Shown: one piece after another, positions 5,101 to 51,679 of the stretch
How positions within the stretch are numbered: the first letter of the stretch is position 1
How the letters are laid out: each line of letters begins with the position of its first letter
Source of the DNA: Verrucomicrobiia bacterium
GTDB lineage: Bacteria > Verrucomicrobiota > Verrucomicrobiia > Palsa-1439
Assembly: GCA_025056465.1 (NCBI GenBank)
Contig: JANWVU010000001.1
Location: 1-51,679 of the forward strand
Reading direction: 5' to 3'
Length of the DNA stretch: 51,679 nucleotides
Translations under genes and position numbers: made by a program
The notes under the pieces: model-generated
Seen by the model: only the letters and a program-made list of their open reading frames with translations
The model's database searches: none
What the model was told of the DNA's origin: nothing

Positions 5101-5112
5101 GGCAATCTCCTC

Positions 5113-5655: not shown

Positions 5656-5661
5656 GGGTCG

Positions 5662-6231: not shown

Positions 6232-6248
6232 GACACCATCCCTCCCGT

Positions 6249-6515: not shown

Positions 6516-6537
6516 GTTTGACTCTCCTTTTGTTGTT

Positions 6538-7260: not shown

Positions 7261-7595
7261 TGTTGCCTCTTGTCCTGCTCCGTTCGTTTCAACATCCACC
7301 GCACGCGCATCACCATCGGCACCGTGTAACAAACGATCACGGCTCCCGCCAACCACCCGCGATGCAACCGGTCGGCCGGCACCATGACCACCAACGCCAG
7401 CACCACCACCAACAACCCGATGCGCACCACCGAATCAACTGCTTGCCGGGTCCAATTCGTCGGCTCGCCGCGTTGCTGCGCCAGTTGCTGACGTCGCAGC
7501 GAGCGCAACTGCCACGCTGCATACGCGCCCCCCAGCACCCCGCCCGTCGCCAGACCCAACCATGCCGCGGAATCCATCGGTTTTGCCCACCGCAT
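7257..7595 (-). CDS. atpI: ATP synthase protein I-like small membrane protein
   Basis: About 112-aa hydrophobic protein immediately upstream of atpB. ATG 7595-7593 overlaps the atpZ stop (TGATG). Called from position and hydrophobicity only. Confidence 0.55.
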   Translation of the reverse strand: MRWAKPMDSAAWLGLATGGVLGGAYAAWQLRSLRRQQLAQQRGEPTNWTRQAVDSVVRIGLLVVVLALVVMVPADRLHRGWLAGAVIVCYTVPMVMRVRWMLKRTEQDKRQQ

Positions 7596-8917: not shown

Positions 8918-9166
8918 GATTCCCCCCTGCGGTTGTTTCTGCAGCCGATAGCATGCAACCAATCCCCAACGATGAAGTCAAGCGATGTTTTTTATCTTGG
9001 GGCGGAACCGGCGGGATGCGCGTATGCCCCCGAACAATCCCGAAATCAACTCCTCCCCGAGCGCGTTACATGGGTGTACCGCAGGTGCGCCTGCGCGGTT
9101 TCCGTCTCATTTTTAGAATTGACGACGAGATTGGTTTTGAGCAAAAACGCTCACGGTCAATCACAG

Positions 9167-9946: not shown

Positions 9947-9961
9947 GCAAAGGAATAAAAC

Positions 9962-12292: not shown

Positions 12293-12295
12293 GCC

Positions 12296-14991: not shown

Positions 14992-15984
<993 letters not shown>

Positions 15985-16032
15985 CCACGCGACGCCGAAG
16001 CTACGTTGGGCGGATGATGCTCGCTTGATGCA

Positions 16033-17064: not shown

Positions 17065-17093
17065 TTCTCCCTTTCGAATGGTTGGAATGGATG

Positions 17094-18029
17094 TCACGCA
17101 CGCTGAGCGCTCAGGTATCGCTCCGCGTCAATGGCAGCGGCGCAACCGCTGCCGGCCGCCGTGACCGCTTGCCGGTAGGTGCGGTCCACACAATCGCCCG
17201 CCGCGAACACCCCCGGCACGCTCGTCGCCGTGCTGCCGGGGCGACAAATAATGTAACCGTCCTCGGCCAAATCGATCTGACCTTTAAAAATAGTTGTATT
17301 GGGCACATGCCCGATGGCGATAAACACCCCGGCACATCCCAGCTCGCGCTCGGCACCGGTTTTCACGTTTCTCAACCGCACGCCAGTGACCTTGTCCTGT
17401 TTCACATCCAAAATCTCCGTTACCACCGAATCCCAAATCGGCTCGATTTTCGGGTTGGACAAAGCGCGTTCAGCCATGATTTTTGAGGCGCGCAACTGGT
17501 CGCGTCGGTGCACCAGGTACACACGCGACGCGAACCGTGTCAGGTAGGTGGCTTCTTCACAAGCCGAGTCACCGCCCCCGACGACCACCAACGGCTGGTT
17601 CCGAAACATCGGCAGTGCACCATCGCAGGTCGCGCAGTAGGTCACACCCTTTTTCTCCAATAACTTCTCGCTCTCCAAACCCAGATGCCGATGCGATGCA
17701 CCGGAGGCGATGATCACCGTGCGCGATTCCCACAATTGGTCATCGGCCCACACGCGAAAAGGTCGTTGCGAAAAATCTACTCGGGTCACCAACGCGCCAT
17801 ACTCTGTGCGCGCGCCAAAACGCTCGGCTTGTTTCTGCATCCGCATCATCAACTCGGTACCGTCAATGCCCTCGGGGAAACCGGGATAGTTTTCTACGAT
17901 GCTGGTGGTGGTGAGCAGCCCACCGGGTTGGGCACCGGTCAACACCACCGGTCGCAAGTTCGCGCGCGCGGTGTACAGCGCCGCGGTCCAGCCTGCACAA
18001 CCGGAACCGATGATGATTACGTTTTCCAT
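17094..18029 (-). CDS. trxB: thioredoxin-disulfide reductase
   Basis: 'VIIIGSGCAGWTAA', redox-active 'CATCDG' and 'GVFAAGDC'. ATG at 18029 preferred over the TTG at 18035. Confidence 0.93.
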   Translation of the reverse strand: MENVIIIGSGCAGWTAALYTARANLRPVVLTGAQPGGLLTTTSIVENYPGFPEGIDGTELMMRMQKQAERFGARTEYGALVTRVDFSQRPFRVWADDQLWESRTVIIASGASHRHLGLESEKLLEKKGVTYCATCDGALPMFRNQPLVVVGGGDSACEEATYLTRFASRVYLVHRRDQLRASKIMAERALSNPKIEPIWDSVVTEILDVKQDKVTGVRLRNVKTGAERELGCAGVFIAIGHVPNTTIFKGQIDLAEDGYIICRPGSTATSVPGVFAAGDCVDRTYRQAVTAAGSGCAAAIDAERYLSAQRA

Positions 18030-18208
18030 CGCCAAAACGCTACCGGGGTAAAACAGGCGCGGACACTACCGGCACCCTCCCTGAGGGTCAAGCCCCCCGT
18101 TGCGCCGTCACCTGCTGCTGGAGACAGCGACGCACCGCCCTGAATTTTTCCTTGTGCCAGATTGGGGTGAAAGGTATTGAGCGCCAGCAAAAGGAGAAGC
18201 GTTTCACC

Positions 18209-20410
18209 ATGGCAACCAATCACCGGTGGCACTTTTTTCGCGCAGGGGGATTCGATCAGGTCAATCTCCACAGCGGACTTGACCTCGCCAATCTCGATCA
18301 ACTCGACCCCAAACTTTGGGTCGCGCTCGCCTGCCCGGTGCAGGGACTGGAGTTCGACTCCCGCACGTTGCAGTTGATGGACACCGATGGCGACGGCCGG
18401 TTGCGCGTTCCCGAAATCATCGCCGCTGCCAAATGGACGTGTTCGTGCCTCAAGAATCCCGATGAGTTGTTTCGCCCCAACGGCGCGTTGCCGCTCGGTG
18501 CGATCAATGATCAGACAGAGGATGGTAAACGACTCTTGTCGTCGGCTAAACAAATCCTGCGTGATCTCGGCAAACCCAACGCCACGAGCATTACCGTGGA
18601 AGACACGGTGGACACGGTGCGCCTTTTCGCGCAGACGAAGTTCAATGGCGACGGCATCGTCATCGCGGACGCGGCGGAAGATGACTTCACGCGCTCGGTC
18701 ATTCAGGCCGTCATCGATTGTTATGGCGCGGAGACCGATCGCAGTGGCAAGCCCGGTATCAACGAGGCAAAGCTCAACCAATTTTTTGCCGACGCAAAAG
18801 CGCATCTGGAATGGTGGGCTAAAGGTGTGGGCGATCGCAATGTTCTGCCCTTAGGCGAGGCGACACCGGCGGCCGCCGCCTTGGTGCAGCAGCTACGTCC
18901 AAAAATTGACGACTATTTCGCCCGCTGCCGGTTGGCCAGTTACGACGCACGAGCTGTTGGCGTGATCAATCGCGCGGAAAGCGACTATGCTGCTTTCGCC
19001 GCGAAAGATCTCGCGTTGAACATACCGGAATTGTCGGGCTTTCCGCTCGCGCGTGTAGAGCCGGCTCGTCCGTTGCCGTTGGTCGAGGGCGTTAATCCTG
19101 CGTGGGCCGGTATGCTGCGGCAATTTCATCAAACCGTTGTGGAGCCCTTGCTCGGCAAACGCACCGCGCTCACCGAACCCGAGTGGTTGCAAATCCAAGC
19201 CAAGTTGGCGCCTTACGAACAGTGGAGCACCAGCAAGGCCGGGGGCGCGGTGGAAAAATTGGGTCGGGCACGGCTTGAGGAAATCCTCAAGAGCAACGCG
19301 CGCGAAACCATCGCCGCGCTACTGGCAAAAGACCGCGCCCTTGAGCCCGAGTTCAACGCCATCACCGCCGTGGAGCGACTGGTGCGGTACTACCGGGATT
19401 TGGTCCCGCTACTGAAAAACTTCGTATCGTTCGAGCATTTCTATGCACGTAAAACCCCGGCCATCTTCCAGGCCGGCACCCTGTACCTCGACCAACGCGC
19501 TTGCGAGTTGTGTCTGCGCGTGGACGACCCGGCCAAACACGGCGTGCTGGCGGGTTTCAGCCGCTTCTATCTGGCGTACTGCGATTGTGTGCGCAAAGGC
19601 ACCGGCGAAAAAATGACGATCGTCGCCGCGTTCACCAACGGTGATTCCGACAACCTCATCGTGGGGCGAAACGGCGTGTTTTTCGACCGCAAAGGGCGCG
19701 ATTGGGACGCCACCATCACCAAGATCGTGGACAACCCGATCAGCATTCGGCAGGCGTTCTTCGCTCCGTACAAAAAGTTCCTGCGGTTCGTCGAAGAGCA
19801 AATCGCCAAACGAGCCGCCGCTGCCGAGGCCGCCAGCGAACAAAAATTGGCTGCAGCCGCCGAAGCCACGGCCAAAGCAGACCAAACGAAAACCCCGCCC
19901 ACACCGCGCAAGATTGATGTCGGCACCGTGGCGGCCATCGGTGTGGCGGTTGGCGGTATCACGGCGGCGTTCGGTGCGTTGCTGCAAGCATTTTTCGGTT
20001 TGGGCATCTGGATGCCGCTGGGCATTCTCGCGTTGATTTTGGTGATCAGCGGCCCCTCGATGGTGATTGCGTGGCTGAAACTGCGTCAGCGCAACCTCGG
20101 TCCTTTGCTCGATGCCAACGGCTGGGCTGTCAACGCCAAGGCCAAGGTCAGTCTGCCGCTCGGGGCATGTCTGACAGGCATCGCAAAATTGCCACCCGGT
20201 GCCCATCGCGACCTCACCGACCCATACGCGGAGCGAAATACCGGCCGCAACATCGTACTGGCACTGCTGGTCGTGATCATTCTTTTGCTTGGGAGTTGGT
20301 ATTTCGGCTGGTTGCAGAAAGTGTTCCCCGTGCTACCGGCCTCGCCTCGTGCCAAGCCGGCACCGGCGGCCACGACCGATACGCCGCCCCCACCGGCTCC
20401 CCCCAATTGA
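18209..20410 (+). CDS. large hypothetical protein with an EF-hand-like Ca-binding loop and a C-terminal membrane anchor
   Basis: 733 aa from the ATG at 18209. 'DTDGDGRLRVPEI' is a DxDxDG loop. There is an Ala-rich helix and about 3 hydrophobic segments near the C-terminus ('VAAIGVAVGGITAAFGALLQAFFGLGIWMPLGILALILVISGPSMVIAWL', 'IVLALLVVIILLLGSWYFGWL'), then a Pro-rich tail. Confidence 0.7.
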   Translation: MATNHRWHFFRAGGFDQVNLHSGLDLANLDQLDPKLWVALACPVQGLEFDSRTLQLMDTDGDGRLRVPEIIAAAKWTCSCLKNPDELFRPNGALPLGAINDQTEDGKRLLSSAKQILRDLGKPNATSITVEDTVDTVRLFAQTKFNGDGIVIADAAEDDFTRSVIQAVIDCYGAETDRSGKPGINEAKLNQFFADAKAHLEWWAKGVGDRNVLPLGEATPAAAALVQQLRPKIDDYFARCRLASYDARAVGVINRAESDYAAFAAKDLALNIPELSGFPLARVEPARPLPLVEGVNPAWAGMLRQFHQTVVEPLLGKRTALTEPEWLQIQAKLAPYEQWSTSKAGGAVEKLGRARLEEILKSNARETIAALLAKDRALEPEFNAITAVERLVRYYRDLVPLLKNFVSFEHFYARKTPAIFQAGTLYLDQRACELCLRVDDPAKHGVLAGFSRFYLAYCDCVRKGTGEKMTIVAAFTNGDSDNLIVGRNGVFFDRKGRDWDATITKIVDNPISIRQAFFAPYKKFLRFVEEQIAKRAAAAEAASEQKLAAAAEATAKADQTKTPPTPRKIDVGTVAAIGVAVGGITAAFGALLQAFFGLGIWMPLGILALILVISGPSMVIAWLKLRQRNLGPLLDANGWAVNAKAKVSLPLGACLTGIAKLPPGAHRDLTDPYAERNTGRNIVLALLVVIILLLGSWYFGWLQKVFPVLPASPRAKPAPAATTDTPPPPAPPN

Positions 20411-20414
20411 TCGG

Positions 20415-20456
20415 AGAAAAAAAATCCCCCGGCTACCGCGCGGCAGCCGGGGGATT
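20415..20456. terminator. intrinsic terminator hairpin between convergent genes (mainly serving the csp gene)
   Basis: Perfect 10-bp stem TCCCCCGGCT (20425-20434) / AGCCGGGGGA (20445-20454) with a 10-nt loop. An A8 run at 20417-20424 gives a U-tract on the minus strand, just downstream of the csp stop. Confidence 0.65.
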
Positions 20457-20472
20457 GAAGCTTCGTGAGAGG

Positions 20473-20673
20473 TTACTTCACGATGACGTTTTGCGCCTTG
20501 GGTCCTTTCGGTGAGTCCACCAGCTCAAATTCAACCAGTTGACCCTCCTCGAGATTTTTGAAACCCGACCCGTTGATGTTTGAGTAATGCACAAACACGT
20601 CCGGGCCGTTCTCCTGTTGGATGAACCCGAAACCTTTCTTCGTGTCGAACCACTTCACTTTTCCTGATGCCAT
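20473..20673 (-). CDS. cold-shock protein (CspA family)
   Basis: 66 aa. '[15 protein letters not shown]' and 'DVFVHYS' are the RNP1/RNP2 motifs. The ORF-track N-terminal extension was discarded. Confidence 0.93.
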
Positions 20674-20762
20674 ACGTCCTTTCTCCTCTGTCTCAGTCCG
20701 GCTTACGAAAACGCCGCTCCGCGTCTTTCGGAACGGCGTCGCACTCCAAAGACTTCGCGCGG

Positions 20763-20790
20763 AGTATAGTTCACGCGCATTGCCTGTCAA
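20763..20790 (-). promoter_or_regulatory. sigma70-like promoter of the csp gene
   Basis: On the minus strand: TTGACA (20790-20785), 16-nt spacer, TATACT (20768-20763). Predicts a 5' UTR of roughly 85-90 nt ending in a GAGGAGAAAGG Shine-Dalgarno. Confidence 0.55.
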
Positions 20791-20826
20791 TTCTCGCTGT
20801 GCTCGCGCGTGCGGGGGAGTGTTGTG

Positions 20827-22611
20827 CTAGCGATGAACGGGCCACAGCAGCGGCAGAAACCAACTGGCCAGCAGCCAGATCAGGATGTTGAGTGGGATAC
20901 CGACGCGCAGGAAATCGCGGAATTGATACCCACCGGCACCGTACACGATCGTGTTGGTCTGGTACCCAATCGGTGTCGCAAAACTGGCGCTGGCGGCAAA
21001 CGCCACAGCGTAAATGAAGGGACGCGGATCGCAATCCAGCGCGTGCGCGCTGGCGATGGCAATCGGCGTCATGAGCGCCGCCACCGCGTTGTTCGAGACC
21101 ATTTCGGTGAGGACGGTAGCCACGAGATAGGTGCCGCTAATGGCCACCCAAGGTCCCCACTCGCCCAGCCACCGGTACAGTCCCTGCGCGAGGTAGGCGG
21201 CCCCACCGGTTTTCTCCATCGCCAATCCCAAACCCAGCGAGCCGACGATCAACGCAATGATGCTCCAGTTGATGGACTCGTACGCCTCGTTCATGTCCAG
21301 ACACCGCGTCAAAACCATCAACAACGCGCCGCCCAACGCCAGGTGCGCCACCGACCAATTGCCCATACCGGCCGCCAACATCACGCCCACCACGATCGCC
21401 AGCGCCACCCAGCGTTTGTGTCGGCGCACGGCCGGCTGGGGCATGGAGGAAAGCAACAACAATTCGCGGCTGCCTCGCAACGCGCTCAGCGCCTCCTCGG
21501 TGCCCTGCAACAACAACGTGTCGCCAAACCGCAACGGCGTTTCCTCCATCAGCTCGCGCACGTTCATCCCGTGACGGTGCAACGCCAGAATCCGCACGTT
21601 GTGTCGTCGCGCAAAATCCAATTCCCGCAACGTGCGTCCCAGCAACGGCGAATTGTTGGGCACCAACGCCTCCACCCAGGTGGTCGCTTCCGTGCCCAAC
21701 TCCTCGATGCCCAGCTCGGCATCCGGCAGCAGCGCCAATCCCCGGGTTGTCTGGACATCGCGCACGCCGCTCAGGGCCAGATTCATGATCAGACAATCAC
21801 CGGCCTCCAACACAATCGCGTCGAACGGCGGATCGAGCGGTTGCCCGTGCCGCGTCACGCCGAGAATGGTGCCGTTACGCAAATGGCGGCGTCGCACGTC
21901 GCCGAGCCGCTGTCCGATTAGCGGCGACCGGGGCAGCACCACCACTTCCGTCCGATATTCTTTGACGGGTGCGGTCGTCAGCAACGACGTCAACGTTTCG
22001 CGTCTCGGCAACAACCACCGGCCGACCGTCACCAAGTACGCAACACCAGCCAACGCCAGAATCACCCCGAGTCGTGTCTGCTCAAACATCCCTAACGCCG
22101 GTAGCTGGTGCCGCGTGACGACGTTGTTGACCACGATGTTGGTGGACGTCCCAATGAGCACGCACACGCCACCGAGCATGGACGCATAGGACAGCGGAAT
22201 CAGAAACCGGGAGGGTGCATACCCCTTTTGCGCGCACACCTGCAGCACCACCGGCAGGTAAAACATCACCACTGCAGTGTTGTTGATGAAGGCACTGGTC
22301 AACGTCGCCGCGGTCACCACTCCAAACAGCAGCAGCAACTCGCCGCGGTCAGCCAGATACAACAAACCACGTTGTACCGGTTCCAACGCACCCGTGCGGG
22401 TCAGTCCCGCGCCGAGGATGAACATCGCCGCAACCGTAATCGGAGCAGGGTTGCTAAAACACGATAGAATCTCCTCGCCCGTCAGCAACCCGGTCAGACC
22501 CAACACACACAACACCGATAACGCGAGCGCATCGGCGCGAATGCGCTCGGTGGCGAACAACACAAACGTTACGCCCGTGATCAGAAAAACCAGCGCGATC
22601 GTCGGTGTCAT
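20827..22611 (-). CDS. SLC13/DASS family permease with two internal TrkA-C domains
   Basis: Polytopic protein with two central TrkA_C-like segments ('VVVLPRSPLIGQRLGDV...', 'VEALVPNNSPLLGRTLREL...'). ATG at 22611 forms an ATGA overlap with the permease stop. Confidence 0.88.
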   Translation of the reverse strand: MTPTIALVFLITGVTFVLFATERIRADALALSVLCVLGLTGLLTGEEILSCFSNPAPITVAAMFILGAGLTRTGALEPVQRGLLYLADRGELLLLFGVVTAATLTSAFINNTAVVMFYLPVVLQVCAQKGYAPSRFLIPLSYASMLGGVCVLIGTSTNIVVNNVVTRHQLPALGMFEQTRLGVILALAGVAYLVTVGRWLLPRRETLTSLLTTAPVKEYRTEVVVLPRSPLIGQRLGDVRRRHLRNGTILGVTRHGQPLDPPFDAIVLEAGDCLIMNLALSGVRDVQTTRGLALLPDAELGIEELGTEATTWVEALVPNNSPLLGRTLRELDFARRHNVRILALHRHGMNVRELMEETPLRFGDTLLLQGTEEALSALRGSRELLLLSSMPQPAVRRHKRWVALAIVVGVMLAAGMGNWSVAHLALGGALLMVLTRCLDMNEAYESINWSIIALIVGSLGLGLAMEKTGGAAYLAQGLYRWLGEWGPWVAISGTYLVATVLTEMVSNNAVAALMTPIAIASAHALDCDPRPFIYAVAFAASASFATPIGYQTNTIVYGAGGYQFRDFLRVGIPLNILIWLLASWFLPLLWPVHR

Positions 22612-27763: not shown

Positions 27764-29461
<1,698 letters not shown>

Positions 29462-32909: not shown

Positions 32910-32956
32910 CCGGTGCGCGATTGAATCGCTGCTCAATCGTTGGTACCGGTGACGGC

Positions 32957-33643
32957 ATGCGCGTTGGGTTGTTTATCCCGTGTTTTGTGGATCAATTGTT
33001 CCCGCAGGTGGGGATCGCAACGGTCACGGTGTTGCGTCGGTTGGGACTGCACGTGGAGTTTCCCGAATCGCAAACCTGCTGTGGCCAACCGGCGTTCAAC
33101 ACGGGTTACTGGTCGGAAGCGCGGGAGTTGGCACGGCGATGCGCGCGCGTGTTTGATGGGTACGATGTGGTGGTGGCGCCATCGGGGTCGTGTGTGGCGA
33201 TGGTCCGCAATTTTTATCCGGCACTCGGCGTGGCGCCGCCGCCGGTGTTTGAGTTGGCGGAGTTTCTGGTGCGCCGCCTTGGGGTGACGGATGTGGGTGC
33301 GCGGTTTCCGGCACGGGTGACGTATCACGATGGCTGCCACGCCCTGCGTGAACTGCGTTTGAAAGAGGAGCCGCGCACGTTGTTGCGCCACGTGCGTGAG
33401 TTGGAGCTGGTGGAGATGGACGCGGCGGAGACCTGTTGCGGTTTTGGGGGAACATTTGCGGTGAAGTTTCCGCACATCAGCGGTGCAATGGACGAGGTCA
33501 AATGCACTGCCGCCGCGCGAACTGGCGCCGAGTACGTGGTGAGTAGCGACAGCAGTTGTCTGATGCAGATTGCGACGCAGTTGCGACAACATCACCCGAC
33601 CCTGCGAACGATCTCACTGGCTGAGGTGCTGGCCAGCACATGA
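32957..33643 (+). CDS. lutA: L-lactate utilization protein LutA ((Fe-S)-binding, CCG domains)
   Basis: 'VGLFIPCFVDQLFPQVG', 'CCGQPAFNTGY' and 'CCGFGGTF' are CCG motifs. Confidence 0.88.
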   Translation: MRVGLFIPCFVDQLFPQVGIATVTVLRRLGLHVEFPESQTCCGQPAFNTGYWSEARELARRCARVFDGYDVVVAPSGSCVAMVRNFYPALGVAPPPVFELAEFLVRRLGVTDVGARFPARVTYHDGCHALRELRLKEEPRTLLRHVRELELVEMDAAETCCGFGGTFAVKFPHISGAMDEVKCTAAARTGAEYVVSSDSSCLMQIATQLRQHHPTLRTISLAEVLAST

Positions 33644-34989
33644 TGAACACGCAGCACGCAGCACAACAATTCACGCAGGCCACGCGACGGGCAGTGGCGC
33701 AAACCGAGCGCCGCGCCGTCATCCGTCGCAATATTGGGTCGTACCATCAGAAAGTGGCTGAGGGGAAACGCCGGTATGCCAACTGGGCAGCGGCACGTGA
33801 CCGAGCAGCGGCGCGTAAACAACAGGTGCTCGCGCAGTGGGACCGGTATCTCGAGGCGTTTGAGGCCAACGTTATTGCCAATGGGGGTCGCGTGCATTGG
33901 GCGGAGACAGCGGAGGAGGCGCGCCGCATTGTGTTGGCGATTGCGCGGCAGCATGGGGTGCGGTCGGTGGTGAAATCGAAATCCATGGTCACGGAGGAGA
34001 TTCACCTCAACGCCGCACTGGAACAGGCCGGGATCGAAGTGGTGGAAACGGATCTCGGCGAGTATGTGTGCCAACTGCGGGGCGAACCGCCGTTTCACAT
34101 CGTCACGCCGATCATGCATTTGTCGCGGCAAGAGGTAGCGGTGACGTTTCGGAAGAAGTTGCAAGTGGCGGCGAGCGACCGGGCGGAGGAATTGACACAG
34201 ATTGCGCGACAGCGACTGCGCGCGGCGTTTTTGCGGGCGGACATGGGGATTACCGGCGCGAATTTTCTGATCGCGGAGACCGGTCAGATTGCGATCACGG
34301 AGAATGAGGGCAACGCGCGCCTGTGTTTTTCGGGTCCGCCGGTGCACGTGGTGTTGGCCGGGATCGAAAAACTGCTGCCGACGGTGAGCGATCTGGCGTT
34401 GTTCTGGCCCTTGCTGGCCACGAGCGGTACCGGGCAGTCGTTGACCGTGTACAACTCACTGATTGCGGGGCCGCGGGCCGGTGGGGAGTTGCACGTGGTG
34501 TTGGTGGACAACGGGCGAACGCGATTGTTTGCGGCGGGTGAGCAGCGCGAGGCGTTGCGGTGCATCCGGTGTGGAGCGTGTTTGAACATTTGTCCGATTT
34601 ATCAAAACGTTGGCGGGCACAGTTACGGCACGACGTATCAGGGGCCGGTCGGGTCGGTGATTACGCCGTGGTTGCGTGACGATGATGATTGGTCGCACCT
34701 GTCGTACGCCAGCAGTTTGTGCGGGGCGTGCACCGACGTGTGCCCGGTAGGGATTCATTTGCACCATCATTTACTGGCCAACCGGCGGGATGCGGTGGCG
34801 CGCGGGCGGGACGCATGGTGGCAGCGGGTGTTGTTTCGCGGTTGGTTGTGGGTGATGCAGTCGCCCGAACGATACCGGTGGGCGGGTCGGTTGGCGACGT
34901 GGGCCGGGGCGGTTGGGTTGCGCGGACCGCGCGGGTTTCCGATGCCGGTACGCCGCACGTTTCGTGATTGGTGGAGTGGACAGCGATGA
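33640..34989 (+). CDS. lutB: L-lactate utilization iron-sulfur protein LutB
   Basis: Two 4Fe-4S motifs, 'CIRCGACLNICP' and 'CGACTDVCP', plus a LUD domain. ATGA overlap with lutA. Confidence 0.9.
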   Translation: MMNTQHAAQQFTQATRRAVAQTERRAVIRRNIGSYHQKVAEGKRRYANWAAARDRAAARKQQVLAQWDRYLEAFEANVIANGGRVHWAETAEEARRIVLAIARQHGVRSVVKSKSMVTEEIHLNAALEQAGIEVVETDLGEYVCQLRGEPPFHIVTPIMHLSRQEVAVTFRKKLQVAASDRAEELTQIARQRLRAAFLRADMGITGANFLIAETGQIAITENEGNARLCFSGPPVHVVLAGIEKLLPTVSDLALFWPLLATSGTGQSLTVYNSLIAGPRAGGELHVVLVDNGRTRLFAAGEQREALRCIRCGACLNICPIYQNVGGHSYGTTYQGPVGSVITPWLRDDDDWSHLSYASSLCGACTDVCPVGIHLHHHLLANRRDAVARGRDAWWQRVLFRGWLWVMQSPERYRWAGRLATWAGAVGLRGPRGFPMPVRRTFRDWWSGQR

Positions 34990-36016: not shown

Positions 36017-36090
36017 GCTCCCGTAGCTCAGATGGATAGAGCATCGGTTTCCTAAACCGAGGGTCGCGCGTTCGAATCGCGCCGGGAGCG
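36017..36090 (+). tRNA. tRNA-Arg (anticodon CCT)
   Basis: Hand-folded cloverleaf: acceptor GCTCCCG/CGGGAGC, D stem GCTC/GAGC, anticodon stem TCGGT/ACCGA with loop TTCCTAA, T stem GCGCG/CGCGC with loop TTCGAAT. 74 nt; CCA is not encoded. Confidence 0.93.
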
Positions 36091-36130
36091 CTTGCGGCGT
36101 GGAGCTGCCGGTGGGCCGAGGAGGGCAAAC

Positions 36131-44120: not shown

Positions 44121-45137
44121 TTAGAGTTGGTTTAACCAGTCGTGCCAGGCGCTCAGGAGGGCGGAGTCGGTGAGGTGCAGCGCAGCGGCGAGCATTTGCA
44201 GCATACCGGTTGTGGTCGGCTGGTGTTGCTCGTATTGAGGTTCGAATAAACCACCTGATTTGAGGAACCGTAGAAACGACTCGCGATGGGGCGGTTGCAT
44301 CAACCACCAGACGAGTGCCCAGCTTTGGGCGTAGGCGATTTCGGTATGCAGGAGGTCACGGTTGAAAAAGCCGGTCGGGTCACGGCATTCGAGAAATTCC
44401 GGTAGGGGGATAAGGAGGCCGGTATCACGGAAGTGCCGCAGCCGTGCGGCGAGGGTGGGGTGCCAGCTTCCGATGGGGGTGGGTTCGCAAAATTGGGCGA
44501 GACCCTCGGTGAGCCACGTGGGTTCGGCGCCGGTGGGAGAGAGCCAACCGTATTGCTGGAACAGTTGATGGGCGGCTTCGTGGCGGATGAGACGATCGTT
44601 CGCTTCGCGGGCGGCAGAGGTGACGGCGTGTTGCCATGAGGCGGCGAAGCCGGTGGCGTGGGCGCAGTTGTCGGGATGGGCGGCCGGTAGGCTATGGAGG
44701 CCGAGGAATTGCCGGTAGCGTTCGGTGCCTTGTTGGTTGAGGAGCACGAGGCGGTTGCGGTCGTGCCAGAAAAAGCCGGCACTGTGACAAAGATGCGGTG
44801 CGATGCGGGACACGTAAACCTGGAAGTCGTGTTGGTTGGCGAACCAATAAACGTCCACTTGCGGTGCCGGCTCGGAAGGCGGTGAGTTGGCTCCGAACAC
44901 GGCGAGGAATTCTGTTTGGATGGCGCGGAGCACTCGCGCAAGATGCGCGATGGTTTCGGGCGAGTCGTCGGAATAAATCCGGTAGGGTGGGCAGATGATA
45001 TTTTGGTGCGGAAGCGGTGGGTAGTCTGAAGTGATGTGTGCGGGCTGACTGGACGGTCGAGAGTAAGGCAACGAGAGCCACGCTGCGGCGAGCCCAAGTG
45101 CGTTGAGGAAAACGGCGGCCACCGTGATGCGTCGCAT
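44121..45137 (-). CDS. secreted DUF1570-like / peptidase-MA-like protein with an HExxH motif
   Basis: Signal-like N-terminus 'MRRITVAAVFLNALGLAAAW'. 'IRHEAAHQLF' is followed by 'WLTEGLAQFCE', giving a gluzincin-like HExxH...E arrangement. Confidence 0.65.
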   Translation of the reverse strand: MRRITVAAVFLNALGLAAAWLSLPYSRPSSQPAHITSDYPPLPHQNIICPPYRIYSDDSPETIAHLARVLRAIQTEFLAVFGANSPPSEPAPQVDVYWFANQHDFQVYVSRIAPHLCHSAGFFWHDRNRLVLLNQQGTERYRQFLGLHSLPAAHPDNCAHATGFAASWQHAVTSAAREANDRLIRHEAAHQLFQQYGWLSPTGAEPTWLTEGLAQFCEPTPIGSWHPTLAARLRHFRDTGLLIPLPEFLECRDPTGFFNRDLLHTEIAYAQSWALVWWLMQPPHRESFLRFLKSGGLFEPQYEQHQPTTTGMLQMLAAALHLTDSALLSAWHDWLNQL

Positions 45138-45184: not shown

Positions 45185-45214
45185 TTGACCGCGTCGAAGA
45201 CGGTCACGTATGTT
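45185..45214 (+). promoter_or_regulatory. candidate sigma70-like promoter of the pilus-like cluster
   Basis: TTGACC (45185-45190), 18-nt spacer, TATGTT (45209-45214). Followed by an AGGAG Shine-Dalgarno at 45241-45245. Confidence 0.35.
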
Positions 45215-45253
45215 GCAGGCGATTTCCCTCGACGGGATTAAGGAGACACTGTG

Positions 45254-45847
45254 ATGAACGGACAGCAACGCCGCGTGAGCGTGTTGGTTGGGTTGGTCAT
45301 TTTCGTCGGAGCGTGTCTCAGTTCTGCGTTGGCCCAAGACAATGTGCGGCCGGGGGATTTGACGATTCGGAAGGTGACGCAGCAATTGCGTCGGGCCCCT
45401 GATTACGGCGGCACGAGCACGGCGTTGGGAAGTCAGGTCTCGGGGGCGAATCGGCCGTGGTTGCACATCGAGGTGGAGTTTTCATCGGAGTTGGAGTGGG
45501 CGGATGAAGTGTTGCTGAAGTATTACGCGTTGGTGGGGGAAGGGCGGGAGGCGCGGTTGCTGACCGGGGATGTGGTCCATGTGAACGTGCCGAAGGGGAC
45601 GCGGCGATACTCGGCGATGTTTTTGCACCCGAACACAGTGCAGCGTTTTGGGAAGGGGAAAGTGGAAGCAATAGCGGTGCAGTTGTTTTATCGGGGGCGA
45701 CTGATGGACCAAACCAGCGAGCCACCGGCGCGAACGCGCTGGTGGGAGCAACTGACGCCAACACCTGGTTTTCTGCTACGGCCCAGTGACACCCCGTGGT
45801 CGGTGGTTGCTCACGAGCGATATGAGGCGTACAAGGCATCGCCGTGA
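45254..45847 (+). CDS. secreted hypothetical protein, positional counterpart of Amuc_1102 (pilus-like cluster gene 1)
   Basis: Signal peptide 'VSVLVGLVIFVGACLSSALAQ'. About 170-aa mature protein. The family call rests on position upstream of the PilM-like gene only. ATG 45254 (GTG 45251 is possible). Confidence 0.55.
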   Translation: MNGQQRRVSVLVGLVIFVGACLSSALAQDNVRPGDLTIRKVTQQLRRAPDYGGTSTALGSQVSGANRPWLHIEVEFSSELEWADEVLLKYYALVGEGREARLLTGDVVHVNVPKGTRRYSAMFLHPNTVQRFGKGKVEAIAVQLFYRGRLMDQTSEPPARTRWWEQLTPTPGFLLRPSDTPWSVVAHERYEAYKASP

Positions 45848-45886
45848 GAGGGCACGGCGCGTGACGGAATTGCGGTTTCTTCGAGC

Positions 45887-47638
45887 ATGCTAGGGTCAGC
45901 ACGGATTCTGGGGGTTGACATCGGGGCCTCGACGGTCAAGGTGGCGGAGTTTCAAGTGCTTCGCGGTCAGATTCTGAAGCTAACCAACTTCAACTACGCT
46001 GAGTTGGGTTTAGATCCGGAGCATGAGGAAAATCGCGGGCCGTTGTTGGTGGCGACGTTGCGGAATCTGTTAAAAGAGCGCGGGATTCGGCGGGGCAAAA
46101 CGGTGTTTAGCGTTTCGGGACAATCGGTGTTCACGCGGTTTGTGAAGTTGCCGCCGGTCGATGAGGCCAAGGTCGCGCAAATCATCCTGTACGAAGCGCA
46201 GCAAAACGTGCCCTTTCCGATTCAAGAGGTGGTGTGGGATTACCAATTGATCGGCACGAACGCGCAGGGCGAGCTGGAGGTGGTGTTGTTCGCGATTAAG
46301 GGCAACATTATCGAAGAGCTGAATCGGGGCGTCGAGTCGGTCGGGTTGGAGACGGTGCTGGTGGATGTGGCGCCGATGGCGTTGTACAACGCCTACCGGT
46401 ATAACTATGGCGAGATGGAAGGTTGCACGATGATTCTGGACATCGGCGCGCGTACCACAAACTTGTTGTTTGCCGAGCAAAACAAGATTTTCTCACGGTC
46501 GCTGCCGATTGCCGGCAACGCCATTACGCAGAACATCGCCAGCGAGTTCAACATCAAGTTTCTTGATGCCGAGACGCTGAAGAAGCGTGTGGGATTCGTG
46601 GCGTTGGGCGGGGCATACGAAGAGCCGGAAGATCAAACGCAGGCGCGCGTCAGTAAGATCATCCGCAACGTGATGACGCGGTTGCACGCCGAAGTAGCGC
46701 GCTCGGTGAATTTTTACCGCACCCAACAAGGGGGGAGCCCACCGGCGCGAGTGTTATTGGCCGGTGGGACGTCGGTGATTCCTTACACGGATCGGTTTTT
46801 CCACGAGAAGTTTCAAGTGCCGGTGGAATATCTTAACCCGTTTCGGAATTTGCAGATTGAGGACAAAATTTCGCGCGAAGAGCTGGGGAAGGTGGCGCAT
46901 TTCTTTGGCGAGGTGGTGGGACTAGGGTTGCGGCAGTTGGGTGAGTGTCCGATTGAAGTGAATCTGATGCCGGTCAGCTTGAAGCAGCGGCGGTCGGTCG
47001 AGGAAAAGCGGCCGTATTTGGCCGGGGCGGCGCTGTGTATTTTGGTGGTGCCCATGGCGGTGTGGGCATATCAAGCGAAAGTGGCGAAGATTCGGCAGGA
47101 AAGGCTGAACGACGTGCGAACGTTGGCAAACCAGTACGACCGGACGCGAAAAGAAATCGAGGCGGAAAAAGCGGCGCTGGAAGAGGTGCTGTCGAAAACG
47201 GACCGAATGGCGCAGTTGGTGGAACAACGCACGTATTGGTTGGCGGTGTTGGATGATGTGTCGCAGCGGGTGACGCGAATTCCGGATTTATGGATTACTT
47301 CCATTAGTCCAGTGCAAGCCGGCGGTGCAGAGGCTGCGCCGACTCCGGTGGGGCGTGGTCGCCGTGGTGTGATGGCCGCGCCGACTGAACCCGCAGCCTC
47401 GTCAACCGCGCCGAAATCTGCGGGCGTTTATCTGCAGATTCGAGGAGAGGGGATTCATAGTGTTAACAACCCGGCGCAGGATTTGGAGTTGGTTGAGCAA
47501 TTTGCGGAGGAACTGCGTCAATCGCCCTTTTTCGACAAGGACGATGTGGAAATCGTGGAACCGCCCCCGGCTATGACGGAGAAGGAAATTTTTCAGTTTG
47601 GGCTGCGTGCGCGGCTGAAAACCCTGCCCCCAACCTGA
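45887..47638 (+). CDS. PilM-like actin-fold ATPase fused to a TM segment and a PilN/PilO-like C-terminal region (Amuc_1101-like)
   Basis: 'ILGVDIGASTVKVAEF', 'VDVAPMALYNAY', 'ILDIGARTTNL' and 'VLLAGGTSVIP' are PilM/FtsA-type phosphate and adenosine motifs. A TM segment 'YLAGAALCILVVPMAVWAY' follows, then a coiled coil and a roughly 130-aa C-terminal domain. Confidence 0.85.
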   Translation: MLGSARILGVDIGASTVKVAEFQVLRGQILKLTNFNYAELGLDPEHEENRGPLLVATLRNLLKERGIRRGKTVFSVSGQSVFTRFVKLPPVDEAKVAQIILYEAQQNVPFPIQEVVWDYQLIGTNAQGELEVVLFAIKGNIIEELNRGVESVGLETVLVDVAPMALYNAYRYNYGEMEGCTMILDIGARTTNLLFAEQNKIFSRSLPIAGNAITQNIASEFNIKFLDAETLKKRVGFVALGGAYEEPEDQTQARVSKIIRNVMTRLHAEVARSVNFYRTQQGGSPPARVLLAGGTSVIPYTDRFFHEKFQVPVEYLNPFRNLQIEDKISREELGKVAHFFGEVVGLGLRQLGECPIEVNLMPVSLKQRRSVEEKRPYLAGAALCILVVPMAVWAYQAKVAKIRQERLNDVRTLANQYDRTRKEIEAEKAALEEVLSKTDRMAQLVEQRTYWLAVLDDVSQRVTRIPDLWITSISPVQAGGAEAAPTPVGRGRRGVMAAPTEPAASSTAPKSAGVYLQIRGEGIHSVNNPAQDLELVEQFAEELRQSPFFDKDDVEIVEPPPAMTEKEIFQFGLRARLKTLPPT

Positions 47639-47639
47639 C

Positions 47640-48578
47640 ATGAATCGCGACTGGCTAAAACGCAACGGAATTGCACTGGTTTTCCTCGTGGGGTTCGTGG
47701 TGTTTCTTGCTTACGACATCTGGAAACTTCAACAAGCCATTCGCCACCGTCGGTCGGTCGAGGAGGAGCTGGAACGCGAGGAGCAGCGGTTACAGGAACT
47801 GCTGCGTAGCGAGATTTTCCCATCGAGCGAAAATGTGCGGATTCTGCGCTCCAACCGAGAGCAATTGGAGGGCTTGTACAGTCAAATTGTCCATCGCGTG
47901 GCGCGTCCCGTGCCAGCCCCGACCCTCAACCGGGTTCAGTTCCGTGCTTTGCTGACGCAAAAGTTAAATGAACTGTCCGACACCGCCCGCGAGAAGGGCG
48001 TGGTCCTAGGGGCAAATTTTGCGTTCGGATTCGACGAATATCTCGGCACGTTGCCACCTGATAATCGGGCAGTGCTCAACGTGCTGACGAAGCAACTGTT
48101 GGTGGTGGAGCGGTTGGTGCAGTTGTTGTATGCGGCTCCCGTCGAGGAGATCCGCAAGATTGAGCGCCCGTCGGCGGAGGCGGTGGTGGCGGAGTTAGGC
48201 GCGAAGTCTGAAGATTTGTACCACCGGATGAGTTTCACCATTGAGTTCACCACCAACACGGCTGGGTTGCAGAAGTTTCTCAACGAATTGCCCCGACAAG
48301 ATTGGGTGTTGATGGTGCGTCAAATGTCCGTGGAAAAAAACAAAATGACGGTGGAGCGACCGGGAGCAAGTCTTCTGGCCGCGCCGGTAGGTTCGGCCGG
48401 TGGGTTGGACCCCGCTTTTTTGGCCCGCGCGGGCCCCGGCATGGTGCCCGGTGGCCTAGGTGTCGCACCTGCGGCGCCTGCCGCCCCCACGCAAGTCGTG
48501 AAGGAGGTTTTGGAAGTGCGTCTGACCGTGGACTTGGTTGAGGTAGCCACCCCGCAAAAACCAGCACGCCGAACTTGA
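47640..48578 (+). CDS. Amuc_1100-like pilus-associated membrane-anchored protein
   Basis: 312 aa. N-terminal TM 'IALVFLVGFVVFLAYDIW', coiled coil, Ala/Pro-rich linker. Colinear with my recollection of Amuc_1100 (317 aa), e.g. 'MSFTIEFTTNTAGLQKFLNEL' vs 'MPLEIAFQGDRESVLKAMNAI', and the C-terminal 'TQVVKEVLEVRLTVDLVEV'. Confidence 0.65.
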   Translation: MNRDWLKRNGIALVFLVGFVVFLAYDIWKLQQAIRHRRSVEEELEREEQRLQELLRSEIFPSSENVRILRSNREQLEGLYSQIVHRVARPVPAPTLNRVQFRALLTQKLNELSDTAREKGVVLGANFAFGFDEYLGTLPPDNRAVLNVLTKQLLVVERLVQLLYAAPVEEIRKIERPSAEAVVAELGAKSEDLYHRMSFTIEFTTNTAGLQKFLNELPRQDWVLMVRQMSVEKNKMTVERPGASLLAAPVGSAGGLDPAFLARAGPGMVPGGLGVAPAAPAAPTQVVKEVLEVRLTVDLVEVATPQKPARRT

Positions 48579-48583
48579 GCGTC

Positions 48584-49393
48584 ATGGACCTATTGCGCCG
48601 ACATTGGGAAAAGTTGTTGTTAACGGGGGTGCTGCTAGGGGTCATTGGGGTGACCATTTGGTTGTCGCTTCGAGTTGGTGAGTTGACGGAGGAATTGCAA
48701 CAGGGGCGGCGAAACCCACCGGCCAAAGGCAAAGAAGTGGCGGTAATCGACACCGAAGCCTACCAACGTGCCATCGCACACCTCCAATCACCCCTCCAAT
48801 GGAAGATTGCTGAGCGTGACCCATTTCAAATGCCGCAGATAGACCGTGGGCCAGTCGAGACCAATGTGCCACCAGACCGTCCTGTATCCACCTCCCTCGC
48901 GTTGTTGCGGGTCGAGCGCGTGCCATTCAAAATGAACTTCAAAGCGTACGTGGGAGAGGGACGCAACTTCCAGATTGATTTCAAATTCCGGCCCCGCACG
49001 TTCTTTGTGGAAAAAGTCGGCGATGTCATTAAGGACCGCTTCGAGGATACGGGTTATCAAGTGATAAAATTTGAGCGCAAAGCGACGAATGTCTTTCACT
49101 CGTCCTTGGGCCGTGAAGTAACTGTGGATGTATCGGAATTGACCGTGCAGCGACCGGGTGAGAAGCCGGTAGTGCTCGTACTGAATCGCGAGGCCGAAGA
49201 AGAGGAGCCAGTCGCCACACTACGTTGCAAGCCATTCATGAGCGACGCCACAACATTCCGAGTGCGGCGCGGACAGCAATTCACATGTGCGGGCAAAACC
49301 TATAAAGTCGTTGACATCACTTTTAACACCGTGATAATCGCAGATATCCTAACAGAGGAGAGGCGCACCCTTTTGTTGACGAGGGAAGGATGA
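48584..49393 (+). CDS. membrane-anchored hypothetical protein, positional counterpart of Amuc_1099
   Basis: N-terminal TM 'LLLTGVLLGVIGVTIWLSL', then a roughly 230-aa soluble domain. ATG 48584 (TTG 48575 would overlap the previous stop). Confidence 0.55.
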   Translation: MDLLRRHWEKLLLTGVLLGVIGVTIWLSLRVGELTEELQQGRRNPPAKGKEVAVIDTEAYQRAIAHLQSPLQWKIAERDPFQMPQIDRGPVETNVPPDRPVSTSLALLRVERVPFKMNFKAYVGEGRNFQIDFKFRPRTFFVEKVGDVIKDRFEDTGYQVIKFERKATNVFHSSLGREVTVDVSELTVQRPGEKPVVLVLNREAEEEEPVATLRCKPFMSDATTFRVRRGQQFTCAGKTYKVVDITFNTVIIADILTEERRTLLLTREG

Positions 49394-49495
49394 AGCAAAC
49401 CATCGGGCGGGGTAAACCGCCGCAAATCGAGAGCTTTATGGCACGAGTCGGATGCGCCCTGTCGTCGCGTCCCTGAATGGAATGGAGAAACGGAC

Positions 49496-51679
49496 ATGAA
49501 AAAGATTCTGTTGCCCATGTTGTTGGCCAGCGTGTCGGTGGCTTGGTCGGTGCACGGCGAGGACGAGCTGTTGTTGGCGGTCAATACCAATTTTCGACCT
49601 GCGCGCCCCGCTGGGGCCGCTCCTGCCGAGGAGAAGCCTGCCCGTCCCGAACGACGTCTACCAACGCCCCGCGCCGAATCCGAGCCACAAGCGGCACCCA
49701 CTCCCGTGGCTCCGGAACCCACTGCGGGAGCAACGCCTGCTCCTCCACCTGCCCCCCCTCCACCGGCCCTTGAACCGGTTGTTGACCCCGCGCGAGCGGA
49801 AGCGGAGACCATCGCGCGGGAAGAACTGGTACGACGTGAGGAGGCATTGCTGGCGGGACAACAACTTTTGCGGGAGGCGCGGGTTGCTTATGCAGACGCG
49901 AATTACCGCTTGGCAGCGGAGCGTTATGAAGCGGCGTTGAAAGCAATCCCGGTGGCCCCCGTCACGGAGAGCGATCGGGCTGCGGCGCGGGATGGCTTGG
50001 CACGGACTTACTACCGCTTGGCGGAGGCGGCCTTGGACGCCGGCGACGTCGCCAAAGCCCGCGAACATGCCGGCAAAGTTCAAGCGATTGCACCCGACAG
50101 TCGCATGGCCGCCGCGCTCAGCGCTCGCATCGAACGGGCCGTGAAGCGCAAGGAGTCGGAGGCGAAACGCCCCGAACCAGTGCCGGACCCCGCCAAGGCT
50201 CCTGAATTTCTTGCGAAGCGTGAAGAGATCAAAAAATTATTCCGCCAAGGCAAACTCTTGATGAATTCCGGTCAATTCGATGAGGCGGAACGCGCTTTTC
50301 AGCAAATTCTTCTTATCGACCCGTATAACTCGGATGCATACGTGTTGCTCGATGACCTGAATGTACAACGCCGGCAGTTCGCTCGCATCGGCACGGATCG
50401 CTCGCGAAATTATCGGCTTTGGGAGGTCGAGCAGCGCTGGTTGCCGTCGATCAGCGCGGAAGTGAAACGTGCGGCGCAAGCCGAACCCGAAGCAGCCGAT
50501 CGCGACAGCCGTGCCAAAGCGGAAATGAATCGCAAGCTGAGCTCGATCGTAATTGAACAAATTAGCTTCCGCGATGCGGTGATTACTGACGTGGTGAATT
50601 TCCTCAGCGAGGAAAGTCGCCGCAAAGATCCCACCGGGGTAAACATCGTACTGCAATTGGGTGAGATGGGTGTGGGAGCGCCCACCGCGCCCGCGCCGAC
50701 CCCGGTGCCGGGCGCACCAGAGGAAGGTTTGCCCGTCGCGCCCGCGCCGACAATCGACACCGCCGGCATTCCACGGATTACCGTCACACTTTTCAACATC
50801 CCCCTTGGCGAGGCTCTTCGCCTGATCACCCAGGCCGCTGGGTTGAAATTCCGGGTCGAGCCATACGCCGTCGTGATTTTGCCGAAGGCGGCACCCGAGG
50901 AAGATCTGATTACACGTTCGTACCCGGTGGAGGCGGGCGTGATTCGCACCTTGATTCAGCAACCTGAGCAGCAACAGCAGGAACGCGGAATCGGGGCCGA
51001 GTTCGTGGGATTGGAAGCTCGCGGTGCGAGAGCGGAATTAGCTGACGTGCGCAAGCTATTCGAAGATGCAGGCGTGCCGTTTCCTCCCGGCTCCAGTATT
51101 ATTTTCAACGAGCGGGCCAGTCGCATCATCATTCGCAACACGCCGGCTAACATTGAAATTTTTGAGGATGTGCTGGCTGGGCTGAATGTGGTGCCGACGC
51201 AGGTCGAAATTGAGGCGAAATTCATCGAGATTGCCCAAGCTGATTTGGACGAGCTGGGCTTCGATTGGAAAGTCGGCCATCGTATTTTTGGGTCCTTTGA
51301 CGCATTTGGCGGAGGCGATGTGCCTTTCGGAGACGTGCCCGATTTGGCCCAAGGGCAGGGGAACATTTCGCGTGGCTTGCGCGATAGCACAATCATTCGG
51401 GGCAATGCAATCGATGCGTTGCTCGGCTTGGGTGGTGTCGGGACGCGGGCCGATATTGGGACATTGCGAGGCGTGTTGACGAATCCACAATTTGAACTGG
51501 TCGTAAGGGCGCTGGCACAAAAGAAAGGCACCGACTTGCTGTCCGCGCCACGCATCACCACAATTAGTGGCAACGCCGCGCTCATTCGAGTAGTGCAAGA
51601 ATTCATTTACCCAACGGAGTTTGAGGCGCCGCAAGTGGCCGAGAATGTGGTGTCGCCCTTCACGCCGAGTGGTTTCAAG
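49496..51679 (+). CDS. secretin (type II/III secretion / type IV pilus outer-membrane channel family) with N-terminal TPR-like region; 3' end outside the window
   Basis: Absent from the ORF track because it has no stop; I translated it by hand and it stays open for 728 codons to the window end. Signal peptide 'MKKILLPMLLASVSVAWSVHG', a Pro/Ala linker and three TPR-like repeats. The secretin core begins 'VPTQVEIEAKFIEIAQADLDELGFDW' and continues '...GTDLLSAPRITTISGNAALIRV'. Confidence 0.85.
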   Translation, partial: MKKILLPMLLASVSVAWSVHGEDELLLAVNTNFRPARPAGAAPAEEKPARPERRLPTPRAESEPQAAPTPVAPEPTAGATPAPPPAPPPPALEPVVDPARAEAETIAREELVRREEALLAGQQLLREARVAYADANYRLAAERYEAALKAIPVAPVTESDRAAARDGLARTYYRLAEAALDAGDVAKAREHAGKVQAIAPDSRMAAALSARIERAVKRKESEAKRPEPVPDPAKAPEFLAKREEIKKLFRQGKLLMNSGQFDEAERAFQQILLIDPYNSDAYVLLDDLNVQRRQFARIGTDRSRNYRLWEVEQRWLPSISAEVKRAAQAEPEAADRDSRAKAEMNRKLSSIVIEQISFRDAVITDVVNFLSEESRRKDPTGVNIVLQLGEMGVGAPTAPAPTPVPGAPEEGLPVAPAPTIDTAGIPRITVTLFNIPLGEALRLITQAAGLKFRVEPYAVVILPKAAPEEDLITRSYPVEAGVIRTLIQQPEQQQQERGIGAEFVGLEARGARAELADVRKLFEDAGVPFPPGSSIIFNERASRIIIRNTPANIEIFEDVLAGLNVVPTQVEIEAKFIEIAQADLDELGFDWKVGHRIFGSFDAFGGGDVPFGDVPDLAQGQGNISRGLRDSTIIRGNAIDALLGLGGVGTRADIGTLRGVLTNPQFELVVRALAQKKGTDLLSAPRITTISGNAALIRVVQEFIYPTEFEAPQVAENVVSPFTPSGFK

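Follow-up and report, generated by a model that had tools for sequence, protein, structure and literature searches.

Since 2016-2017, the gene cluster of Akkermansia muciniphila that runs from Amuc_1102 to Amuc_1098 has figured in the literature as a type IV pili gene cluster in which Amuc_1098 is PilQ (PMC4960237, PMC5332112, PMC10688800). The locus is now known as MUL2 and is reported to be required for mucin acquisition and gut colonization (PMC13174399, PMC12928651, PMC12418764). According to a 2026 paper, MUL2 synteny is conserved in Akkermansiaceae of both aquatic and gut origin, and a type IV-like pilus is proposed to mediate glycan attachment (PMC13174399). Here, we describe a related five-gene cluster at the 3' end of a 51,679-nucleotide stretch of DNA from an uncultured Verrucomicrobiia bacterium (assembly GCA_025056465.1, contig JANWVU010000001.1, positions 1 to 51,679 of the forward strand), hereafter “the window.” The cluster belongs, as a new and divergent representative, to a type IVa pilus-like system that is already known, and not to a new kind of system. 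A first-pass annotation of the window had put it forward as an undercharacterized apparatus whose function had not been worked out; the weight given there to the absent parts and the unknown function was overstated, and the statement on function is out of date given the reported role of MUL2 in mucin acquisition.

[quoted passage not shown] In classical type IVa pilus organisms, the pilMNOPQ block lies apart from the pilin and motor genes as a norm, and proteobacterial PilQ carries AMIN domains. GspL, for its part, unites a cytoplasmic actin-like domain, a membrane helix, and a periplasmic domain in one chain. The window cluster shares with the type IVa systems the order M-N-O-(P)-Q, a homologous PilM domain, the motif, transmembrane (TM) helix, and coiled coil of PilN, a secretin, and, as far as its relatives show, motor genes (PilB, PilC, and PilT types) that stand apart from the block. 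It differs from them in that PilM and PilN form one polypeptide, an extra gene of the Amuc_1102 family comes first, the PilP position is filled by a helix-anchored protein without detectable PilP similarity, and the secretin bears a tetratricopeptide repeat (TPR) domain in place of AMIN domains.

From 45251 to the end of the window, the plus strand holds five tightly packed, co-directional open reading frames (ORFs) separated by gaps of 39, 1, 5, and 102 nt, an arrangement that the first-pass annotation had described correctly. We refer to them as gene 1 (45251-45847, 198 aa), gene 2 (45887-47638, 583 aa), gene 3 (47640-48578, 312 aa), gene 4 (48584-49393, 269 aa as called in the public record), and gene 5 (49496-51679), the ORF of which runs off the window. 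The DNA past that point was read from the 56.9-kb contig JAVQYI010000014.1 of the metagenome-assembled genome (MAG) GCA_033577295.1 (“Verrucomicrobiae bacterium”), found by an exact-protein match; adding 35886 to a coordinate on this locus (L001) gives the window coordinate. In full, gene 5 encodes 878 aa (L001 13610-16246), and its stop lies at window-equivalent 52132, 453 nt past the end of the window.

When compared with NCBIfam, genes 1 to 5 match, in that order, the models for Amuc_1102, 1101, 1100, 1099, and 1098. The scores are E 2.4e-14 for gene 1 against Amuc_1102_rel (53.4 bits, cut-off 55), 3.4e-171 for gene 2 against Amuc_1101_fam (571.1 bits, cut-off 650), 1.4e-25 for gene 3 against Amuc_1100_fam (90.4 bits, cut-off 180), 1.9e-11 for gene 4 against Amuc_1099_fam (44.2 bits, cut-off 50), and, for gene 5 against Amuc_1098_fam, 6.6e-114 with the part inside the window and 2.5e-172 with the full protein (574.9 bits, cut-off 750). 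Across the PilM, Secretin, and Amuc family hidden Markov models, all five products are significant, far beyond chance. Because the scores are significant yet below the equivalog cut-offs, these are clear homologues from a divergent branch and not near-copies; identity to an Akkermansia-type locus (L068) is 25% for gene 1, 36% for gene 2, and 24% for gene 3. The families, their order, and their orientation are nevertheless those of A. muciniphila.

Gene order was followed across relatives by scanning one genome per species with the gene 3 family motif, which gave 71 loci, and by scoring their ORFs in iterated profile searches. The loci span Verrucomicrobiae, Prosthecobacter/Brevifollis, Spartobacteria-type genomes, Opitutales/Puniceicoccaceae, Kiritimatiellia, and Lentisphaeria (Victivallales and Lentisphaerales). 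All five genes occur in the same order on one strand in 51 of the 71, and the order is kept in every locus complete enough to judge. A further 15 are cut by contig ends, and in the remaining five (Puniceicoccaceae/Opitutales) gene 1 was missed; in at least two of these, a divergent signal-peptide protein of ~200 aa stands in its place. The first-pass annotation had proposed that an Amuc_1102 to Amuc_1098 homologue lies here in another verrucomicrobial genome, and had staked that proposal on synteny in related genomes; the ordered model matches and the 51 complete loci bear it out. Published synteny covers Akkermansiaceae and other Verrucomicrobiales, and is weaker in Chthoniobacterales (PMC13174399); synteny in Verrucomicrobiales is also reported in bioRxiv 10.64898/2025.12.30.696933. 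The five-gene order reaches beyond Verrucomicrobiales, to Opitutales, Kiritimatiellia, and Lentisphaeria, which we did not find stated in the papers that we read. Downstream of the secretin, the related loci repeatedly carry genes for a 5'-3' exonuclease (21 loci), dephospho-CoA kinase (CoaE; 20 loci), and Rho (24 loci). Linkage of CoaE to pilus genes is also known in Proteobacteria.

Gene 2 encodes a natural, complete PilM-PilN fusion. Its residues 9-350 form a cytoplasmic actin-fold PilM domain, which scores 172.5 bits against TIGR01175 (pilM; cut-off 133 bits) and 1e-39 against Pfam PilM_2, and which matches PilM structures in the PDB from M. xanthus (3JC8_Ma, 2.4e-39) and Thermus (2YCH, 1.1e-27). 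Directly after this domain, residues 356-362 read IEVNLMP (46952-46972), the N-terminal motif of PilN; the P. aeruginosa structure 5EOU, deposited as “PilM, PilN” in one chain, is also matched and aligns with gene 2 as far as residue 362, motif included. Basic residues follow, then a TM helix at residues 377-395 (47015-47071), and the C-terminus consists of a long helix of the coiled-coil type and, in the periplasm, a beta-beta-alpha-beta-beta domain that contains a disordered insert.

A profile of this C-terminal part (A4, built from 48 loci) matches M. xanthus PilN (3JC8_Na) at E 1.3e-10, with profile positions 1-124 aligned to PilN residues 2-126, so that the alignment begins at the very N-terminus of PilN. 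By hhalign, the C-terminal profile also matches E. coli HofN over its full length (E 5.8e-4), whereas HofM, HofO, HofP, and HofQ give values of at least 0.78; the N-terminus of HofN, INFLPWRQQRR, corresponds to VNLMPVSLKQRR in gene 2. The PilN N-terminal motif is present in 49 of 64 full-length homologues of gene 2, and E-L-V-P-type variants are found in the rest, in the form E-I-E-L-V-P in Prosthecobacter/Akkermansia-type homologues. One homologue (P0109) has a precomputed Pfam PilN match; the Pfam PilN model alone is not significant against gene 2 itself (E 0.13). In the AlphaFold2 (AF2) model of the C-terminus (predicted local distance difference test [pLDDT] 80.8), a helix of ~100 residues is followed by strand-strand-helix-strand-strand with a disordered insert, and this predicted topology is the one expected for the periplasmic domains of PilN and PilO. 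The first-pass annotation had described a PilM-like protein fused to a membrane anchor. It was right about the PilM-type protein, but what follows is more than an anchor, as profile, motif, and modeled topology identify a complete PilN part. We did not find a full PilM-PilN fusion stated in the papers that we read, and a literature search for natural fusions of this kind gave nothing relevant, which does not show them to be undescribed.

At the other end of the cluster, gene 5 encodes a TPR-secretin. A signal peptide and a Pro/Ala-rich stretch lead into a TPR region (residues ~165-296), N0/STN-like and Secretin_N-like domains, and the secretin domain itself (residues 672-862, from window position 51509). 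The full-length protein matches Pfam Secretin at 4.3e-37 and TPR_2 at 1.3e-10, and, in the PDB, the PilQ structures 6W6M (2e-22, residues 425-861) and 6VE2 as well as the GspD structure 5ZDH (1.4e-22). An N-terminal TPR region of the secretin is also what has been described for Amuc_1098 (PMC4960237). Some Prosthecobacter/Brevifollis-type loci (L053, L058, L073, and L074) hold a second large secretin-like gene, of ~980-1060 aa, on the opposite strand and ~3.5 kb upstream of gene 1 (at ~300-3900 of those loci, minus strand).

The product of gene 3 begins with a TM helix (residues 11-28, 47670-47723) and carries, at residue 126, the invariant motif N-F-A-F-G-F; its last strand is preceded by a proline-rich segment. 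Profiles of the family match the Amuc_1100 crystal structures 6KNY and 6LAD (E 4e-12 and 1e-22). Weak support for a PilO-like identity comes from hhalign of gene 3 against the PilN-part profile of gene 2 (E 2.7e-4) and from the GspM and T2SSM_b matches given below. The Amuc_1100 fold has been described as two alpha-beta-beta motifs like those of type IV pilus and T2SS proteins (PMC13119276), and as specifically PilO/PilN-like (bioRxiv 10.64898/2025.12.30.696933). Gene 3 is best read as a PilO-type partner, its PilO-likeness resting on these published descriptions.

The product of gene 4 starts with a TM helix (residues 11-29), continues in a flexible linker, and carries at its C-terminus an all-beta module (residues 104-265, 48893-49378), which AF2 models confidently (pLDDT 83.6). 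An exhaustive profile search of representatives gave 1141 members of the Amuc_1099 family at E ≤1e-3 and no bridge to any named family. Most members exceed the window protein in length by ~100 residues and contain a motif of four cysteines as well as a calcium-binding-like DxDxDG insert (alignment A5); both are absent from gene 4 and from its homologues in the four closest relatives. We did not find the short and long forms of this family stated in the papers that we read. In a Foldseek search PilP (2Y4Y_B) reached no more than a probability of 0.63 and E 0.44, which is not significant, and it is operon position and topology (a beta-rich periplasmic module) that suggest a PilP-like role for gene 4. 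In a separate metagenomic protein of 752 aa (P0192), a gene 4-type beta module at the C-terminus is joined to an N-terminal part that is unrelated.

Gene 1, which opens the cluster, matches the crystal structure of Amuc_1102 (PDB 7DSZ) at E 5e-7. Its product has a Sec-type signal peptide that ends in ALA ahead of QD, and its homologues in ~55 loci have an ordinary signal peptide ending in A-x-A ahead of Q; neither a conserved lipobox nor a class III prepilin signal was seen in gene 1 and these ~55 homologues. We did not find the Sec-type (non-prepilin) signal of the Amuc_1102 family stated in the papers that we read. The sequence V-G-A-C in the signal peptide had suggested a lipoprotein, a reading that we rejected since the cysteine is not conserved among the homologues.

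The first-pass annotation had also remarked on the lack of a pilin, ATPase, or platform gene, and had listed the energy source as an open question. Within the window the first statement is true: Pfam scans of the large ORFs found no PilB, PilT, PilC, or prepilin gene, and no prepilin motif of the G-F-T-L-I-E type occurs in any frame. As a property of the system it does not hold. Following the contig past 51679 on JAVQYI010000014.1, as had been proposed, one meets a 5'-3' exonuclease gene 3' of gene 5, after which the contig stops, 1.6 kb beyond the window. The last 114 nt (L001 17377-17490, minus strand; window-equivalent 53263-53376) encode the C-terminal 38 residues and the stop of a PilC/GspF protein, 92% identical over 38 aa (E 1e-18) to the platform protein of a close relative (L005). 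It is most likely the contig break inside pilC, and not a biological absence, that hides the motor from view.

The loci of the four closest relatives (L005-L008) complete the picture. Each has a convergent T2SSF (PilC/GspF) gene 3' of the secretin, within ~15390-20900 of the locus (minus strand), and three of the four have the 5'-3' exonuclease gene in between. In L005 and L008, the T2SSF gene is followed by a gene for a T2SSE ATPase (568-570 aa) that contains an MshEN domain. L008 has, in addition, a 358-aa ATPase of the PilT/PilU family (463.6 bits, cut-off 319) and another T2SSE ATPase; the PilT-family protein tips the balance toward a retractile type IVa pilus. In a Victivallales locus (L009), a GspF/PilC platform gene lies directly upstream of gene 1. 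Genes for pilC and a PilB/GspE-type ATPase, and in one genome a PilT-family ATPase, adjoin the cluster in relatives, which would answer the question of the energy source. This adjacency, observed in one lineage, was not found stated in the papers that we read.

Our preferred explanation, to which we would give a probability of roughly 0.8, is that the cluster encodes those parts of a type IVa pilus-like machine that span the envelope, for alignment and as a pore (PilM-N, a PilO-like protein, a connector, and a TPR-secretin), with its motor next door, and that it does so in the form characteristic of Verrucomicrobiota and related lineages of the Planctomycetes-Verrucomicrobia-Chlamydiae (PVC) group. 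In such a machine, gene 2 unites in one chain the cytoplasmic actin-fold PilM and the bitopic PilN, with its I/V-N-L-L/M-P motif, helix, coiled coil, and alpha/beta domain. Gene 3, which has the same topology, would most likely be the inner-membrane partner of gene 2's PilN part. The one-helix anchor and periplasmic beta module of gene 4 would most likely tie the inner-membrane ring to the secretin, the role of PilP or GspC, and gene 5 would be the outer-membrane secretin, with a pilotin-like TPR domain fused at its N-terminus. The gene 1 product would be a Sec-exported accessory protein. The motor, comprising a PilC-type platform, a PilB/GspE-type assembly ATPase, and a PilT-type retraction ATPase, would be encoded convergently just beyond the 5'-3' exonuclease gene, and the pilins elsewhere in the genome. 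The whole would extrude and retract a canonical type IV pilin fiber for attachment or substrate capture, as proposed for MUL2 in Akkermansia. The host here is an uncultured Verrucomicrobiae MAG, and so the substrate need not be mucin as in Akkermansia.

The same parts can be arranged as a type II secretion-like machine, in which genes 2, 3, 4, and 5 would be the equivalents of GspL, GspM, GspC, and GspD. Folded proteins, for instance glycan-degrading enzymes or the protein encoded by gene 1, would then be driven through the secretin by a short pseudopilus. Gene 2 has the same one-chain architecture as GspL, and gene 3 has weak matches to GspM (2.7e-5, residues 188-244) and T2SSM_b (4.9e-3, residues 187-244). 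The secretin is GspD-like, and its score against the GspD model lies slightly above that against the PilQ model (153.5 vs 132.1 bits). Nonetheless, we consider this arrangement unlikely. The sequence affinity of gene 2 is to the models and structures of PilM and PilN, and no GspL or GspC model in NCBIfam or Pfam matched any protein of the cluster; the GspM score of gene 3 is 23.9 bits, where the cut-off is 60. Gene 4 matches neither a PDZ nor a GspC homology-region domain. PilQ structures align with gene 5 from the N0 region onward, while those of GspD do so only from ~residue 530. Finally, the PilT/PilU-family retraction ATPase of L008, a hallmark of type IVa pili, sits beside the assembly ATPase.

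Improbable, too, is a rewired machine, in which the PilM-PilN fusion, the non-PilP connector, and the TPR-secretin would handle the Sec-exported gene 1 subunit, pilin-like but not a prepilin, as fiber or cargo, and which would serve polymer capture or import across Verrucomicrobiota, Kiritimatiellia, and Lentisphaeria with no classical pilus. Closely allied to it is a reading that we hold to be quite improbable, namely a pilus-derived machine for glycan capture or uptake, a role also proposed for MUL2, whose cargo or fiber is not a pilin with a class III signal but the Sec-exported, Amuc_1102-like gene 1 product (Amuc_1102 being reported as archaeal-pilin-like and trimeric). Gene 1 does come first in almost every locus, it is a homologue of Amuc_1102 as seen in 7DSZ, and neither the window nor L005-L008 holds a prepilin gene linked to the cluster. 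Yet gene 1 and its homologues, with their ordinary signal peptides, do not have the hydrophobic N-terminal helix by which type IV pilins polymerize, and the PilB, PilC, and PilT genes next door in relatives fit a normal pilin cycle. To our knowledge, no PilB/PilC machine assembles a subunit like the gene 1 product.

That the cluster should be mainly a DNA-uptake (competence) machine of the HofMNOPQ/ComM-Q type, and not an adhesive or motility pilus, is very improbable. Its M-N-O-P-Q order corresponds to that of E. coli hofMNOPQ, annotated as DNA utilization genes, and a 5'-3' exonuclease gene lies directly 3' of the secretin here and in 21 related loci, but genes for ComEA, ComEC, or DprA were not seen in the vicinity, the neighbors encoding the exonuclease, CoaE, and Rho are housekeeping genes, and the only genetic evidence for the family, which comes from Akkermansia, is reported to indicate mucin acquisition (PMC13174399; PMC12928651). 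Set beside the E. coli Hof proteins themselves, gene 2 shows in its C-terminal part a specific relationship to HofN, with which it shares the N-terminal motif; the Hof proteins are separate and much smaller, and no similarity to HofO and HofP was detected in genes 3 and 4.

Several results weigh against the type IVa pilus-like explanation and should be kept in mind. No product (0 of 5) reaches the curated NCBIfam equivalog cut-off in its own Amuc model, and classical type IVa systems have no counterpart of gene 1. A Foldseek search with the C-terminal model of gene 2 found no significant match and placed phage neck proteins first, probably because the long helix dominates the search. The gene 3 profiles A2 and A6 found Amuc_1100 only and no PilO, and hhalign of gene 3 against HofO was negative. 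For gene 4, no sequence similarity to PilP, HofP, or GspC was detected with profile A5, the single sequence, or (for HofP) hhalign, and Foldseek against the PDB gave nothing significant, the top matches being small beta-barrel (KOW/Tudor) proteins. In addition, gene 4 is helix-anchored without a lipobox, and thus not a lipoprotein like PilP. No type IV prepilin or prepilin peptidase gene was seen in the window or in the 20-kb loci L005-L008, and the large ATPases and platform protein of the relatives score about equally as GspE or PilB and as GspF or PilC, which a T2SS would also fit. Lastly, Akkermansia papers locate Amuc_1100 in the outer membrane or on the surface of the cell (PMC5332112), and the PilO-type inner-membrane topology predicted for its family conflicts with that location.

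Two promoter-like sites accompany the cluster on the plus strand. The first (45185-45214; L001 9299-9328; TTGACC-18-TATGTT, 9/12) is a weak consensus match upstream of gene 1. It lies where the first-pass annotation had begun the gene, the start of which (GTG/ATG) is at 45251, after an AGGAG box. The second (49311-49338; L001 13425-13452; TTGACA-16-GATAAT, 11/12) is a sigma-70-like, near-consensus site that falls within gene 4, at its 3' end, and the start of the secretin gene follows 158 nt downstream; judged by consensus match, it is a possible internal promoter. On the other side, a DUF1570/Peptidase_MA-like gene (44121-45137, minus strand) diverges from gene 1 and is the same neighbor in L005-L008, which suggests a possible link with the cluster within this lineage.

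According to Pfam scans of the other large ORFs, the remaining genes of the window, which has a GC content of ~0.57-0.63, are housekeeping genes. They include those for an F1Fo ATP synthase (1243-7356, minus strand), a DeoR regulator and 2-oxoacid dehydrogenase complex (8909-14991, plus strand; fused E1 of 776 aa, E2, and E3), malate/lactate dehydrogenase, ABC transporters, LutA/LutB-like lactate utilization (32921-34989, plus strand), and a glycogen debranching enzyme, together with thiC and arg genes. A thiamine pyrophosphate (TPP) riboswitch (27779-27859, plus strand; Rfam RF00059, 56.4 bits) lies directly 5' of thiC (27866-29461), and a tRNA-Arg gene (anticodon CCT; 36017-36091, plus strand) just 5' of the glycogen debranching enzyme gene. 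An ORF of 752 aa without a Pfam match (18152-20410, plus strand), with an EF-hand-like DTDGDGRL near its N-terminus and hydrophobic helices near its C-terminus, has the appearance of a genuine and conserved hypothetical membrane protein.

In Akkermansia, Amuc_1100 and Amuc_1098 are intensively studied as host-active proteins, and a PilO- and PilQ-type reading gives them a mechanistic frame. To this, the present instance adds the gene 2 fusion, a wider range for the five-gene cluster, the adjacency of the motor in one lineage, which would answer the question of the energy source, and the tension between the topology of Amuc_1100 and its reported location. The machine itself may be seen as ancient, and it is widely conserved in lineages of the PVC group.

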